Sequence record: MZ956761.1
Source of the DNA: a phage
Strand: one strand, 5' to 3'
Length of the DNA: 64,000 nucleotides
How positions within the stretch are numbered: position 1 is the stretch's first letter; each line of letters opens with the position of its first letter. The notes under the pieces were generated by a model, which did not search any database, was not told where the DNA came from, and saw only the letters and a list, made by a program, of their open reading frames with translations. The position numbers and the translations under genes were made by a program. Below, in pieces: positions 42,089 to 55,216 of the stretch.

Positions 42089-42161
42089 TGGGAATTAGCC
42101 AAGTTGGTAAGGCATAGCACTTTGACTGCTAGATGCAAAGGTTCGAGTCCTTTATTCCCAG
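42089..42161 (+). tRNA. tRNA-Gln (anticodon TTG)
   Basis: Hand-folded cloverleaf: acceptor TGGGAAT/ATTCCCA, T-loop TTCGAGT, anticodon loop CTTTGAC. Confidence 0.7.
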
Positions 42162-42162
42162 C

Positions 42163-42249
42163 GCGAGAATGGTCAAATTGGTAAAGGCACAGCACTTAAA
42201 ATGCTGCGGAATGATTTCCTTGTGGGTTCGAGTCCCACTTCTCGCACCA
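42163..42249 (+). tRNA. tRNA-Leu (anticodon TAA)
   Basis: Acceptor GCGAGAA/TTCTCGC, long variable arm, encoded CCA. Confidence 0.75.
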
Positions 42250-42254
42250 AATTT

Positions 42255-42328
<74 letters not shown>

Positions 42329-42338
42329 ATTTAATCTA

Positions 42339-42412
42339 CTCCGTGTAGCTCAGTTTGGTAGAGCGCCTGATTTGGGATCAGGAGGTCCAAGGTTCAAATC
42401 CTTGTATGGAGA
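42339..42412 (+). tRNA. tRNA-Pro (anticodon TGG)
   Basis: D-arm TAGCTCAGTTTGGTAGAGC, anticodon loop TTTGGGA, T-loop TTCAAAT. Confidence 0.7.
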
Positions 42413-42414
42413 CT

Positions 42415-42504
42415 GGAGGCGTGGCAGAGTGGTTTAATGCACCGGTCTTGAAAACCGGCAGTCGCTCCGGCGACTCATAGGTTCAAATCCTATCGCCTCC
42501 GCCA
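42415..42504 (+). tRNA. tRNA-Ser (anticodon TGA)
   Basis: Acceptor GGAGGCG/CGCCTCC, long variable arm, anticodon loop CTTGAAA, CCA. Confidence 0.75.
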
Positions 42505-42509
42505 GTTTT

Positions 42510-42585
42510 GCTGATTTAGCTCAGTAGGTAGAGCAACTCACTTGTAATGAGAAGGTCGGCGGTTCGATTCCGTCAATCAGCACCA
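42510..42585 (+). tRNA. tRNA-Thr (anticodon TGT)
   Basis: Acceptor GCTGATT/AATCAGC, anticodon loop CTTGTAA, CCA. Confidence 0.75.
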
Positions 42586-42586
42586 A

Positions 42587-42661
42587 GGCCCTGTAGCTGG
42601 AAGGTTCAAGCAAGCGACTCATAATCGCCAGATGGTGGTTCAATTCCACCCAGGGCCACCA
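42587..42661 (+). tRNA. tRNA with CAT anticodon (Ile2-type or Met)
   Basis: Acceptor GGCCCTG/CAGGGCC, anticodon loop CTCATAA, CCA. Confidence 0.65.
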
Positions 42662-42674
42662 AATTAAGAATTAA

Positions 42675-42761
42675 GGGGAGTTATCCCGTAGAGGTAGCGG
42701 TGTGGACTGTAAATCCATTGTCATTGCGACTCGGGTGGTTCGACTCCATCACTCCCCACCA
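42675..42761 (+). tRNA. tRNA-Tyr (anticodon GTA), type II
   Basis: Perfect 7-bp acceptor GGGGAGT/ACTCCCC, anticodon loop CTGTAAA, long variable arm, T-loop TTCGACT, CCA. Confidence 0.6.
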
Positions 42762-42765
42762 ATTT

Positions 42766-42840
42766 GGATGTGTAGCTCAATGGCAGAGCGATCGCCTGTT
42801 AAGCGATTGGTTATAGGTTCGAATCCTATCACGTCCGCCA
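42766..42840 (+). tRNA. tRNA-Asn (anticodon GTT)
   Basis: Acceptor GGATGTG/CACGTCC, anticodon loop CTGTTAA, T-loop TTCGAAT, CCA. Confidence 0.65.
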
Positions 42841-42954
42841 AATTTGTGACAACTGTCACATTAATATCTACTTGACGCGATTATAGGGGTTGAACTGATC
42901 ACTCTTCTCTTAATTTCGTGTGAAGACATCTTGATTGTTGGAGTAGGTATTAAT

Positions 42955-43030
42955 GTGGCCGTAGTTCAGTTGGTAGAACTCGAGATTGTGATTCTCGTAG
43001 TCATGGGTTCGACTCCCATCGGTCACCCCA
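42955..43030 (+). tRNA. tRNA-His (anticodon GTG)
   Basis: Acceptor GTGGCCG/CGGTCAC, anticodon loop TTGTGAT, T-loop TTCGACT, CCA. Confidence 0.6.
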
Positions 43031-43034
43031 ATTA

Positions 43035-43110
43035 CGGGGCATAGCTCAGAAGGAAGAGCAAGGACCTTCTAAGTCCTAGGTCGTAGGTTCGATCCCTACT
43101 GCCTCGACCA
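43035..43110 (+). tRNA. tRNA-Arg (anticodon TCT)
   Basis: D-arm TAGCTCAGAAGGAAGAGC, anticodon loop CTTCTAA, T-loop TTCGATC, CCA. Confidence 0.7.
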
Positions 43111-51940: not shown

Positions 51941-51989
51941 GTTTACTTTTCCTCTTGACTGTGGTATAATTTTTCTATCAGTTAAGAGG
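51941..51989 (+). promoter_or_regulatory. T4-type early promoter with flanking inverted repeat
   Basis: GTTTAC-N18-TGgTATAAT; CCTCTTGAC/GTTAAGAGG arms around the -10. Confidence 0.55.
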
Positions 51990-51997
51990 AGAATAAC

Positions 51998-52459
51998 ATG
52001 ACTATCAATACAGAAGTTTTTATCCGTCGAAATAAGCTTCGTCGTCACTTTGAGTCGGAGTTTCGTCAAATTAACAATGAGATTCGTGAGGCATCAAAAG
52101 CAGCAGGGGTCTCATCGTTTCATCTAAAATATTCTCAGCATCTTCTTGATCGCGCAATTCAACGGGAGATTGATGAGACATATGTTTTTGAATTATTCCA
52201 TAAAATAAAAGACCATGTTTTAGAAGTTAATGAATTCCTGAGTATGCCTCCGCGTCCTGACATTGACGAGGATTTTATTGATGGGGTTGAATATCGTCCT
52301 GGACGTTTAGAAATCACAGATGGAAATCTTTGGCTTGGATTTACAGTTTGTAAACCTAATGCGAAGTTCAAAGACCCGTCACTTCAATGTAGGATGGCAA
52401 TTATCAACAGTCGTCGTTTACCAGGAAAGGCTTCTAAAGCAGTAATTAAAACTCAATGA
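51998..52459 (+). CDS. regB: RegB endoribonuclease
   Basis: 153 aa, same length as T4 RegB; own early promoter; position between the vs cluster and vs.1. Confidence 0.7.
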   Translation: MTINTEVFIRRNKLRRHFESEFRQINNEIREASKAAGVSSFHLKYSQHLLDRAIQREIDETYVFELFHKIKDHVLEVNEFLSMPPRPDIDEDFIDGVEYRPGRLEITDGNLWLGFTVCKPNAKFKDPSLQCRMAIINSRRLPGKASKAVIKTQ

Positions 52460-52466
52460 GGTAAGC

Positions 52467-53012
52467 ATGAGAAAAGCACTACTCGCTGGTCTATTGGCCA
52501 TTTCAATGATGGCACATAGCTCCGAGCATACTTTCAGTAATGTCCAACTCGATAACATGCGTTACGCGTATCAATTCGGGGAACAATTTTCTAAGGATGG
52601 AAAATATAAAACACACAAAAATATCCACAAGAGCGGATTAGGTCATATAATGGCAGCCATTTTATGGCAAGAAAGCTCTGGCGGAGTTAATTTAAAATCT
52701 AAACCAAAGCATCACGCCTACGGAATGTTCCAAAATTATTTGCCTACTATGCGAGCAAGAGTTAAGGAACTTGGTTATAATATGACCGATGCTGAAATAA
52801 AAAGAATGTTGAATAAACGATCCAATTCAGCTTCCTGGGCGTACATTGAACTTTATTATTGGTTAAATATACATAAGGGCGATATAAGAAAGGCGATATC
52901 CTCTTATAATTCGGGATGGAATGTTAAAGCAGGTTCTAAATATGCTTCTGAAGTCCTAGAAAAGGCTAATTACCTTAAAAATAATAAACTTTTGGAAATA
53001 GTAAATGACTAA
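52467..53012 (+). CDS. secreted lytic transglycosylase-like protein (SLT domain)
   Basis: 181 aa; signal peptide; SLT motifs ILWQESSGG and YGMFQ. Confidence 0.55.
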   Translation: MRKALLAGLLAISMMAHSSEHTFSNVQLDNMRYAYQFGEQFSKDGKYKTHKNIHKSGLGHIMAAILWQESSGGVNLKSKPKHHAYGMFQNYLPTMRARVKELGYNMTDAEIKRMLNKRSNSASWAYIELYYWLNIHKGDIRKAISSYNSGWNVKAGSKYASEVLEKANYLKNNKLLEIVND

Positions 53013-53352
53013 AATTTTGGTTTTATGTATAGGATTAATTTCATTTTCTGCTTCTGCGTCAGCAGATACATCATATACTGAAATTAGAGAATATGTAAAC
53101 CGCACTGCGGCAGATTATTGTGGGAAAAATAAAGCATGCCAAGCTGAATTTGCACAGAAATTAATATATGCATATAAAGACGGAGAAAGAGATAAATCAA
53201 GCAGATACAAAAACGATACATTATTAAAACGATATGCTAAAAAGTGGAATACATTAGAATGTTCAGTTGCGGAGGAGAAAGATAAAGCCGCTTGTCATTC
53301 AATGGTTGACCGTTTGGTAGATTCTTATAATCGAGGATTGAGTACTAGATGA
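53005..53352 (+). CDS. small secreted Cys-containing protein
   Basis: 115 aa; Sec-type signal peptide MTKILVLCIGLISFSASASA; four Cys. Confidence 0.5.
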   Translation: MTKILVLCIGLISFSASASADTSYTEIREYVNRTAADYCGKNKACQAEFAQKLIYAYKDGERDKSSRYKNDTLLKRYAKKWNTLECSVAEEKDKAACHSMVDRLVDSYNRGLSTR

Positions 53353-53816
53353 TTGTAAAATATATCAAGGGCGATATTGTCGCCCTTTTCGCTGAAGGTA
53401 AAAATATTGCGCATGGATGCAATTGTTTTCATACTATGGGTTCAGGCGTAGCGGGTCAATTAACCAAAGCTTTCCCTAAAATTTTGGAAGCTGATAAATT
53501 ACAGACTGAATGGGGTGATGTGACTAAACTTGGTTCTTATTCAGTCTATGAAAAATACTTTAGGACTCATAAAGCGTATTGCTTCAACCTTTATACTCAA
53601 TTTCAGCCAGGGCCAAATTTTGAGTATTCCGCTTTAATGAATTGTATGTTAGAATTAAATGAGTTTGGTGAAAATAAACTAATTAAACCTACAATCTATA
53701 TGCCTAGGATTGGTGCAGGCATAGGTAAAGGGAACTGGGATATTATTGAGGGGATTTTAGATGCATATTCCTCTAAATTAGAAATTGTGATTGTTGATTG
53801 GGAACCATTATTATGA
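53349..53816 (+). CDS. macrodomain-like protein (ADP-ribose binding/processing)
   Basis: 155 aa; N-terminal IKGDIV...IAHGCNCFHTMGSGVAGQL matches the macrodomain ligand-binding pattern. Confidence 0.55.
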   Translation: MIVKYIKGDIVALFAEGKNIAHGCNCFHTMGSGVAGQLTKAFPKILEADKLQTEWGDVTKLGSYSVYEKYFRTHKAYCFNLYTQFQPGPNFEYSALMNCMLELNEFGENKLIKPTIYMPRIGAGIGKGNWDIIEGILDAYSSKLEIVIVDWEPLL

Positions 53817-54025
53817 ATATACATTATCCACATCCGTTTGATCCTAAAAACAAAGCAGTAATTATTCGTCAATGGGAACGCATTTGCCGTACTAAATGTC
53901 CAATTAATAGTCAACATGATGTAAATAAAGACTATATTGGAACATTCGTTGAATATACCTTTATTGATAAGAAAGGTCGTAAACAGCATGTAGAAGAATA
54001 TTGCTTAAAGGTTACATGGTTATGA
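53813..54025 (+). CDS. hypothetical small protein
   Basis: 70 aa; ATGA overlap with previous gene. Confidence 0.45.
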   Translation: MNIHYPHPFDPKNKAVIIRQWERICRTKCPINSQHDVNKDYIGTFVEYTFIDKKGRKQHVEEYCLKVTWL

Positions 54026-54228
54026 GCCAAACTAGTATTCTTAAAAATGCCCATTGTGAAAAGTGTAAATGGCCTGTTGTTTTTGCTTTATGTAATGATG
54101 AAATGGCTTGTGATTTCGATTATTGGTGCTATTGTTCTAATAAAGGATGCATCAATCATAAAGGTGAAGGATTTTATTCGGGATTTTATCCTTATCCTGA
54201 TTTCGTTAAAGAAGGTAAACCAAAATGA
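54016..54228 (+). CDS. small Cys-rich (zinc-ribbon-like) protein
   Basis: About 70 aa with CEKC...C...C...CYC...C; start Met at 54016 or 54022. Confidence 0.45.
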   Translation: MVMSQTSILKNAHCEKCKWPVVFALCNDEMACDFDYWCYCSNKGCINHKGEGFYSGFYPYPDFVKEGKPK

Positions 54229-54401
54229 ATGATGATTTAAAATATCAATTATTACGTGAACTTGATGTTTTGATTGAACTTTCTGCACAAAAAGGATTTA
54301 TAATTGGATCGGGTCAAAAAGACCCTAACGGTCATTCAATCGTAGCGGTTATGAATCAGAAACGAGTCATTTTAAAACTTTTGGGGATTGACATACTGTG
54401 A
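54225..54401 (+). CDS. hypothetical small protein
   Basis: 58-aa ORF below track cutoff; ATGA overlap upstream and GTGA overlap downstream. Confidence 0.4.
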   Translation: MNDDLKYQLLRELDVLIELSAQKGFIIGSGQKDPNGHSIVAVMNQKRVILKLLGIDIL

Positions 54402-54583
54402 GTCTAAGCAAAGAACAAAAAGATAAATTGTTTGAGCTTATCCATGAACTTCTAGATGAGCATACAGAAGCAAACACCTTTTATGATGAATACGGCCCGC
54501 TATCTCCCGAACAGCAGGAAGAATTTGCTGATCGGTTTGATAAGAAAGAAAATGAATTAATAGCTTATGTGAATACGCTTTAA
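54398..54583 (+). CDS. small acidic helical protein
   Basis: 61 aa, GTG start; resembles the small paralog family at 56402-57315. Confidence 0.45.
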   Translation: MSLSKEQKDKLFELIHELLDEHTEANTFYDEYGPLSPEQQEEFADRFDKKENELIAYVNTL

Positions 54584-54592
54584 GAAGGTGAT

Positions 54593-55174
54593 ATGGCGAG
54601 TTTAATTTTTACTTATGCAGCAATGAATGCTGGAAAATCTGCTTCTCTTTTGACTGCTGCACATAATTATAAAGAACGTGGAATGAGTGTATTAGTTCTT
54701 AAGCCTGCTATTGATACTCGCGATTCTGTCTGTGAAGTCGTTTCTCGCATTGGAATTAAGCAGGAAGCGAATATTATTACAGATGATATGGATATTTTCG
54801 AGTTCTATAAATGGGCTGAAGCACAAAAAGATATTCATTGCGTATTTGTAGATGAAGCTCAGTTTTTAAAAACTGAACAGGTGCATCAATTGAGCCGAAT
54901 TGTTGATACATATAATGTTCCTGTTATGGCTTATGGGCTAAGGACTGATTTCGCTGGAAAATTATTTGAAGGTTCTAAAGAACTTTTAGCGATTGCAGAT
55001 AAACTTATTGAACTAAAGGCAGTTTGTCATTGTGGTAAAAAAGCGATTATGACAGCTCGATTAATGGAAGATGGAACACCAGTTAAAGAAGGTAATCAAA
55101 TCTGTATTGGTGATGAAATTTATGTTTCTTTGTGTAGAAAACATTGGAATGAATTAACTAAAAAGCTCGGTTAG
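54593..55174 (+). CDS. tk: thymidine kinase
   Basis: 193 aa; P-loop YAAMNAGKS and C-terminal Cys zinc site. Confidence 0.9.
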   Translation: MASLIFTYAAMNAGKSASLLTAAHNYKERGMSVLVLKPAIDTRDSVCEVVSRIGIKQEANIITDDMDIFEFYKWAEAQKDIHCVFVDEAQFLKTEQVHQLSRIVDTYNVPVMAYGLRTDFAGKLFEGSKELLAIADKLIELKAVCHCGKKAIMTARLMEDGTPVKEGNQICIGDEIYVSLCRKHWNELTKKLG

Positions 55175-55216
55175 TGCAAAAGTTATAAATAGGTTTATCT
55201 AACTAAAGGGGTATAT

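Follow-up and report, generated by a model that had tools for sequence, protein, structure and literature searches.

The stretch of phage DNA analysed here (record MZ956761.1; 64,000 nucleotides, called the window below) contains, between the genes vs and tk, an ATG-initiated open reading frame that encodes a protein of 155 amino acids with the N-terminus MIVKYIKGDIVALFAEGKNIAHGCNCFHTMGSGVAGQLTKAF. Coordinates from the ORF listing and for the other features discussed are collected in Table 1. The immediate neighbors are vs upstream and tk.3 downstream. The start codon (53349-53351) shares bases with the TGA of vs (53350-52), and the terminal TGA (53814-16) shares bases with the ATG of tk.3 (53813-15), so that the gene is ATGA-coupled both upstream and downstream; the overlap with vs is annotated likewise in T4 and in phage ADUt. 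An initial annotation of the window had described a 155-aa ORF with this start, located between the vs region and tk and coupled by ATGA to the next small gene. The ORF listing and the T4 and ADUt annotations bear this out, and the same coupling is present with vs. The ORF is real and coding, and more than a chance frame, since it matches Pfam Macro, PHROG 335 and translated phage records (tblastn) and yields an AlphaFold2 model.

Table 1. Features of the tk.4 locus, with window coordinates and the evidence for each.
Feature	Position	Strand	Evidence or remark
tk.4 / adfM coding sequence, stand-alone macrodomain protein	53349..53816	+	ORF; identity to T4 Tk.4; Pfam; AlphaFold2; Foldseek
ATGA overlap, vs stop / tk.4 start	53349..53352	+	Sequence and ORF table
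First ligand-binding loop (predicted), residues 22-33, H-G-C-N-C-F-H-T-M-G-S-G	53412..53447	+	Conservation and hhalign
Gln84 codon, CAA	53598..53600	+	Site of the catalytic Lys of TARG1 (K84) and DarG (K80); equivalent to SCO6735 Gln85
Second Gly-rich, diphosphate-binding loop (predicted), residues 119-130, P-R-I-G-A-G-I-G-K-G-N-W	53703..53738	+	Conservation and alignments
ATGA overlap, tk.4 stop / tk.3 start (tk.3 = 53813-54025)	53813..53816	+	Sequence; ADUt annotation

The product and T4 Tk.4 (NP_049723) are equal in length and identical at 154 of 155 positions; the sole difference is A139, which is T139 in T4 and lies within helix 130-140 of the model described below. The flanking products are also close to those of T4 (vs and rI.1, 100% identical; tk, 99.5%; rI, 99%; tk.3, 95.7%), and T4 has the vs-tk.4-tk.3 order in common with the window, with stop/start overlaps as here. 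Over positions 52400-55200, identity is 100% with Escherichia phage ADUt and 96-99% with hundreds of Tequatrovirus genomes. From its near-identical sequence and syntenic position, the ORF can therefore be assigned as the tk.4 orthologue in a close relative of T4. The gene goes by various names in the Tequatrovirus relatives, among them 'macro domain-containing protein', 'phosphatase', 'Poa1p-like family protein' and 'tk.4', and the T4 record itself states that Tk.4 'contains A1pp phosphatase motif'. A 2026 preprint on phage T2 mislabels tk.4 as a 'putative thymidine kinase'.

The genes regB, vs.1, vs, tk.4 and tk.3 follow one another with tightly packed or overlapping stop and start codons. 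Immediately upstream of regB lies a promoter-like site at 51942-51970 (GTTTACT-N17-TGGTATAAT; 10/12 match, extended -10), which is similar to T4 early promoters and, of the candidate starts for a regB-vs.1-vs-tk.4 transcript, lies nearest. A scan of the window identified no terminator-like site on the + strand between this site and tk.4. The initial annotation had called the product an early protein; early co-transcription of tk.4 is plausible from its position and the promoter-like site. Within the gene itself, 18 nt past the start codon, codons 7-13 contain a perfect GC-rich 8-bp inverted repeat (53367-53387; AAGGGCGA-TATTG-TCGCCCTT) that the scan flagged as terminator-like on the - strand. 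The local RNA fold at 53367-53387 was not significantly better than that of shuffled sequences (z = -1.4).

Further downstream, between tk.3 and tk, the small-gene cassette at 54016-54583 is unlike the tk.2/tk.1 cassette of T4, and DNA identity to T4 drops there from 96.6% to about 69%, or to nothing. The cassette consists of a 70-aa Cys-rich ORF (54016-54228; CxxC...C...CxC...C) and a 58-aa ORF (54225-54401), neither with a counterpart among T4 tk.1 and tk.2, followed by a GTG-start 61-aa ORF (54398-54583) that is only 52% identical to T4 Tk.2. Elsewhere in the window, 11 tRNA genes lie at 42089-43110 on the + strand (Gln, Leu, Gly, Pro, Ser, Thr, Met(CAT), Tyr, Asn, His and Arg). T4 has 8 tRNA genes, and relative to that count the window phage carries extra tRNAs. 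The gene with the CAT anticodon may encode a lysidine-type tRNA-Ile.

The initial annotation had proposed that the protein is a macrodomain, to be checked by a profile search and a structure prediction, and profile, solved-structure matches and predicted fold agree on this point. Residues 22-132 match Pfam Macro (PF01661; model positions 2-113 of 118) with 27.7 bits, above the gathering cutoff of 22, and the protein falls into PHROG 335 with an E value of 3e-65. When PDB sequences were searched with phmmer, BT1257 (2FG1/2AFC) was the best match (1.3e-9), and yeast Poa1p (2.5e-6), the DarG macrodomains of T. aquaticus and M. tuberculosis, SCO6735 (5E3B) and human TARG1/OARD1 were also found; with a profile of 72 homologues, BT1257, TARG1, SCO6735, Poa1p and DarG rose to between 2e-18 and 9e-12. 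AlphaFold2, given the alignment of the same 72 homologues, returned a macrodomain fold of strands alternating with helices (pLDDT 95.7, pTM 0.91). Every one of the top 50 Foldseek matches of this model in the PDB (138 matches at E<=0.001) is a macrodomain or a design based on one. Profile and model thus identify the ORF product as a predicted macrodomain. This call was already known for tk.4 through the 'A1pp phosphatase motif' of the T4 record, and A1pp-domain matches of tk.4 orthologues were tabulated in 2006 (PMC1524935).

The class of macrodomain is another matter, as the initial annotation had taken E. coli YmdB, of the MacroD type, for comparison. This comparator proved wrong. No MacroD or YmdB chain appeared among the phmmer matches to PDB sequences even at E<=10, nor among the profile matches listed at E<=0.001, and YmdB/MacroD-type membership was rejected for the lack of any such chain. 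Foldseek placed TARG1, Poa1p, DarG and BT1257 first, with TM scores of 0.7-0.8, and ranks 1-19 were almost all filled by this set; viral and AF1521-type macrodomains ranked lower, at a TM of about 0.6. Sequence and model together assign Tk.4 to the ALC1-like class (TARG1/DarG/Poa1p/SCO6735) rather than to the MacroD, PARG or macroH2A classes.

The two Gly-rich loops predicted in Tk.4, M30-G-S-G33 and I121-G-A-G-I-G126, are conserved relative to TARG1, DarG and SCO6735. In the first ligand-binding loop, G23, N25 and G33 are invariant among the 72 homologues and H22, C24, C26 and M30 are conserved in at least 90%, with G31 and G33 belonging to the Gly-rich part. N25 pairs in hhalign with N22 of T. 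aquaticus DarG, the second most important residue in the mutagenesis of that protein, where N22A was strongly impaired (PMC5179494). The second loop has as its aligned counterparts PRIGCGL in TARG1, SCO6735 and BT1257 and PPLGAGNGG in DarG; here the same 72 sequences show no variation at P119, I121, G122 and G124 and at least 90% conservation at G128 and W130.

It is at the catalytic position that Tk.4 departs from its best-studied relatives. Profile alignments (hhalign) set the invariant N80-L-Y-T-Q84 opposite N-F-P-T-K80 of T. aquaticus DarG and L-I-T-K84 of TARG1, and the corresponding column 100 of a MAFFT alignment holds Gln in five Tk.4-family members, SCO6735 and BT1257 and Lys in TARG1, both DarG proteins and PhiKZ gp104. 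All 72 aligned homologues have Gln84, and so do 80 of 80 relatives from bacterial assemblies; the residue lies outside the search pattern by which those 80 were retrieved. The lysine matters in the enzymes that have it: K80A abolishes both the activity and the antitoxin function of DarG (PMC5179494), and K84 is the nucleophile in the TARG1 mechanism (PMC9411070, PMC5179494). By these alignments, Tk.4 is classed as a Gln-type macrodomain and not as the Lys type of DarG and TARG1.

A Gln-type active site is known to work on DNA. SCO6735 of Streptomyces coelicolor, a stand-alone protein encoded outside any DarTG operon, strips thymidine-linked ADPr from DNA (PMC9411070). It acts faster than DarG or TARG1 and rescues DarT toxicity, and both Q85A and Q85E are inactive; its authors propose water-mediated catalysis in which the Gln positions the distal ribose (PMC9411070).

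Genetic evidence for the role of tk.4 comes from T4. T4 that lacks both adfA and adfN stays resistant to DarTG2, from which the LeRoux laboratory predicted a further factor (PMC11825919). In November 2025 a HIDEN-SEQ preprint described a T4 transposon library challenged on a DarTG2 host (bioRxiv 10.1101/2025.11.20.689424). In that screen tk.4 was the single significant T4 gene, and a clean knockout of tk.4 sensitized T4 to DarTG2; the gene was named AdfM, for anti-DarT factor Macrodomain (10.1101/2025.11.20.689424). This hit agrees with the earlier resistance of T4 lacking adfA and adfN. The genetics come, as far as the accessible text shows, from one DarTG2 system in a non-peer-reviewed preprint, and they concern T4 with its T139, not the present phage with A139. 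On whether T4 AdfM clears ADP-ribose from DNA enzymatically, the preprint goes no further than 'seems likely' (10.1101/2025.11.20.689424). Our literature search found no report of a biochemical assay of a T4-type AdfM. The initial annotation had suggested an eraser or anti-defense role against DarT-type toxins and plating on DarTG hosts as a check; the T4 screen and knockout support that role, and the plating result published for T4 is the one predicted (10.1101/2025.11.20.689424). For the Thoeris-type alternative that it also named, neither the present analysis nor the literature found gave support. Since the DarTG2 role of T4 tk.4 has been published, the interpretation in the initial annotation is supported yet already known: both the gene (T4 tk.4/adfM) and its anti-DarTG2 role predate this analysis. 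What is confirmed is that a reader given nothing but sequence can recognize a phage counter-defense gene.

Taking these observations together, the protein is most probably an ADP-ribosylglycohydrolase that clears single-stranded phage DNA of the thymidine-ADPr placed there by DarT2, with an active site of the Gln type and water-mediated catalysis. In the sequence of events that we propose, tk.4 would be expressed from the regB-vs.1-vs-tk.4 transcription unit as a stand-alone macrodomain; DarT2 of a bacterial DarTG2 system would ADP-ribosylate thymidine in single-stranded phage DNA; and Tk.4 would hydrolyse the thymidine-ADPr to free ADP-ribose and a replicable template, by which the replicating phage genome would be protected from DarTG2. 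Cleavage would be mediated by water, with Gln84 and Asn25 holding the distal ribose and the modified base in place, and no covalent lysyl intermediate would form. That Tk.4 takes ADPr off DNA enzymatically, and that Q84 and N25 serve in catalysis, we infer by analogy, the chemistry being that of SCO6735.

Two features count against the hydrolase explanation: DarG and TARG1 depend on a lysine that Tk.4 does not have, and the DNA features of SCO6735 (K34 and the mobile-loop residues K89 and K93) are missing. The first of these could also be read as a sign of non-catalytic protection, in which Tk.4 would bind or inhibit DarT2, or shield ADP-ribosylated DNA, and the mark would not be hydrolysed. 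There is precedent for this in the catalytically dead SCO6735 Q85A, which still inhibits DarT in vitro and does so more strongly than the DarG and TARG1 mutants (PMC9411070). However, the isolated DarG macrodomain carrying K80A fails to inhibit DarT (PMC5179494), and every ligand-binding or catalytic-site residue open to comparison is the same in hundreds of relatives, phage and bacterial, without a DarT partner. Such conservation is more in keeping with an enzyme whose target is a chemical mark than with a protein that binds a single toxin. We therefore regard purely non-catalytic protection as improbable.

A hydrolase might also have a different main substrate. Poa1p is among the best matches of Tk.4 (E 2.5e-6; TM about 0.8) and, in the phmmer alignment, has the H-x-C-N-C motif in common with its N-terminal part; because Poa1p acts on ADP-ribose-1''-phosphate, the family is labelled 'phosphatase' in RefSeq and PHROG. 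A comparative-genomics survey argued that the targets of phage macrodomains are for the most part soluble ADPr derivatives (PMC9503650), and some bacterial or phage-like loci pair Tk.4-like genes with NADAR, NamPT, NAD synthase or ADP-ribosylglycohydrolase. Tk.4 might thus act mainly on a small ADPr derivative, such as ADP-ribose-1''-phosphate, O-acetyl-ADP-ribose or an ADPr-derived immune signal, with the DarTG2 effect being secondary. This seems unlikely to us: the Poa1p match is mainly to the N-terminal 96 residues, Poa1p has Ser rather than Gln at the Q84 site (phmmer alignment), and the sole phenotype reported for T4 tk.4 is on DarTG2, a DNA-modifying system (10.1101/2025.11.20.689424).

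A still different substrate would be the marks that the phage itself makes, with Tk.4 as a regulatory eraser of the products of Alt, ModA and ModB on host proteins or RNAylated proteins. In favor of such an eraser, there are three ADP-ribosyltransferases in T4-type phages, but the Alt and Mod enzymes modify arginine. SCO6735 and TARG1 do act on protein-linked ADPr as well (PMC9411070); the ALC1-like class, however, is known for Glu/Asp-linked and thymidine-linked ADPr (PMC9411070, PMC5179494). Judged by family occurrence alone, the family is also common in FelixO1- and rV5-type phages and in bacteria. We consider a role in erasing the phage's own marks very improbable.

Members of the Tk.4 family were found by tblastn in 2752 phage records, covering Tevenvirinae, FelixO1- and slur16/FV3-like phages and several groups that infect Pseudomonas, Vibrio and Acinetobacter. 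The DarG-like lysine type was found in 294 phage records only, mostly jumbo phages and Escherichia phages of about 77 kb, and no T4-type phage (about 170 kb) with the lysine type was among the matches listed. Bacterial assemblies contain at least 527 relatives of Tk.4 with 35-43% identity, many of them on megabase contigs. One match, in a Bacilli MAG (P0073/L003), was rejected as bacterial: its contig is that of a T4-like phage with Rnl1, a Dda-like helicase, PNKP and dCMP deaminase, and a MAG label is therefore no proof of bacterial origin.

We studied 80 of the bacterial loci by all-versus-all clustering of every ORF within 2.5 kb. Only lineage-specific housekeeping synteny emerged (argC, secA, ileS, an ABC transporter and an EEP-family protein), and the clustering, which was run without a DarT query, revealed no recurrent toxin-sized or DarT-like neighbor family in the 80 loci. 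Since the bacterial relatives have no recurrent toxin-like neighbor, descent of Tk.4 from stand-alone macrodomains fits these comparisons, rather than descent from a DarG antitoxin. Ten tight neighbors were sampled: two NADAR proteins, a NamPT-like protein, an ADP-ribosylglycohydrolase, an NAD synthase, an RNA ligase, a DUF4291 protein and an EEP-family protein, and two more, one with a weak sub-threshold phosphoribosyltransferase match and one without a Pfam match. Tk.4-like genes lie within 60 nt of NADAR (loci L047 and L068), NamPT-like (L039), ADP-ribosylglycohydrolase (L050), NAD synthase (L068), RNA ligase (L015) and DUF4291 (L054) genes; by look alone, the neighbor in L054 resembles the NamPT-like one in L039. 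These six loci are scattered neighborhoods of NAD/ADP-ribose conflict, some of them probably phage-derived. In four Rhodobacterales loci (L044, L023, L067 and L074) the next gene directly after the Tk.4-like one encodes an endonuclease/exonuclease/phosphatase-family protein of about 400 aa, its start codon often overlapping the Tk.4-like stop, a pairing that is specific to this lineage of four roseobacter-group genomes.

A broader reading of the family is possible, although we hold it to be rather doubtful: the Tk.4 types could form a third, mechanistically distinct ALC1-like subgroup, marked by Gln at the catalytic site, a short TARG1-like loop and an invariant H-G-C-N-C motif that Poa1p also has, which would have come from widespread stand-alone bacterial genes and not from DarG antitoxins and might have substrates beyond DarT2 marks, among other nucleic-acid, protein or small-molecule ADPr adducts. 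If this is true, the AdfM proteins of T4 and PhiKZ would be convergent solutions, and the roughly 2750 phage genomes with the T4 type would have a broader anti-ADP-ribosylation tool. Learning whether and how AdfM cleaves thymidine-ADP-ribose without a Lys, and on which other substrates it may act, would clarify the commonest macrodomain family of large lytic phages.

Finally, we compared Tk.4 with the systems that it most resembles. SCO6735 (5E3B) and Bacteroides BT1257 (2FG1) are, like Tk.4, stand-alone ALC1-like proteins with Gln at the site of the DarG/TARG1 Lys. However, they have merely 21-29% identity to Tk.4, and the loop from Q84 to Y93, which has 10 residues in Tk.4, TARG1 and DarG, is a 'mobile loop' of 15-16 residues in SCO6735 and BT1257; in most of the 80 bacterial relatives examined the loop after the Gln has 13 residues. 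The DNA-contacting K34 of SCO6735 corresponds to S32 in Tk.4, and K89 has no counterpart, as the mobile loop with K89 and K93 is absent. Given the low identity, the short loop and the lack of K34 and K89 counterparts, Tk.4 is not a typical SCO6735/BT1257 protein. In length class and short loop Tk.4 is closer to human TARG1/OARD1 (4J5R/4J5S), its top Foldseek match, which is reported to remove DarT-type thymidine ADPr as well (PMC8501950); the catalytic dyad K84/D125 of TARG1, however, corresponds to Q84/G126 in Tk.4, D125 being aligned with G126.

The DarG macrodomain (T. aquaticus, 5M31/5M3E; M. tuberculosis, 5M3I) has the same fold and class as Tk.4 (TM about 0.77) and conserved Gly-rich loops, and both DarG and T4 Tk.4 counteract DarT2. 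Identity between them is about 20%, however, K80 of DarG is replaced by Gln84, and Tk.4 consists of the macrodomain only, without the C-terminal DarT-binding domain of DarG and without an adjacent darT. The DarG models of NCBIfam (equivalog NF048014; score 30.4 bits where the cutoff is 250, over positions 2-147 of the 338 in the model) and PADLOC (36 bits, positions 2-145 of 329) match weakly and over the macrodomain part only. Tk.4 was rejected as a DarG because of its score, its domain architecture, the residue at its catalytic position and the genes around it; by analogy Tk.4 would work like DarG, yet it is not a DarG. The same strategy is followed in this phage group by AdfN, the T4 NADAR protein that acts against DarTG1: it is an orphan ADP-ribosylglycohydrolase, and it frees phage DNA of a DarT mark (PMC11825919). 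AdfN, however, has the unrelated NADAR fold, is specific for the guanosine-ADPr made by DarT1 and has no effect on DarTG2 (PMC11825919). The other protein named AdfM, gp104 of the chimallivirus PhiKZ, is like T4 Tk.4 a phage stand-alone macrodomain directed against DarTG2, and its removal of the DarT2 mark (T-ADPr) has been demonstrated biochemically (PMC13309987). It differs in being of the lysine type (K78), DarG-like in sequence, imported into the phage nucleus and only 18% identical to Tk.4. Because one is of the lysine type and the other of the Gln type, the AdfM proteins of PhiKZ and T4 are assigned to separate macrodomain lineages, acquired independently. What the present comparison adds is the assignment of T4-type AdfM as a Gln-type macrodomain, distinct from both DarG and the AdfM of PhiKZ.
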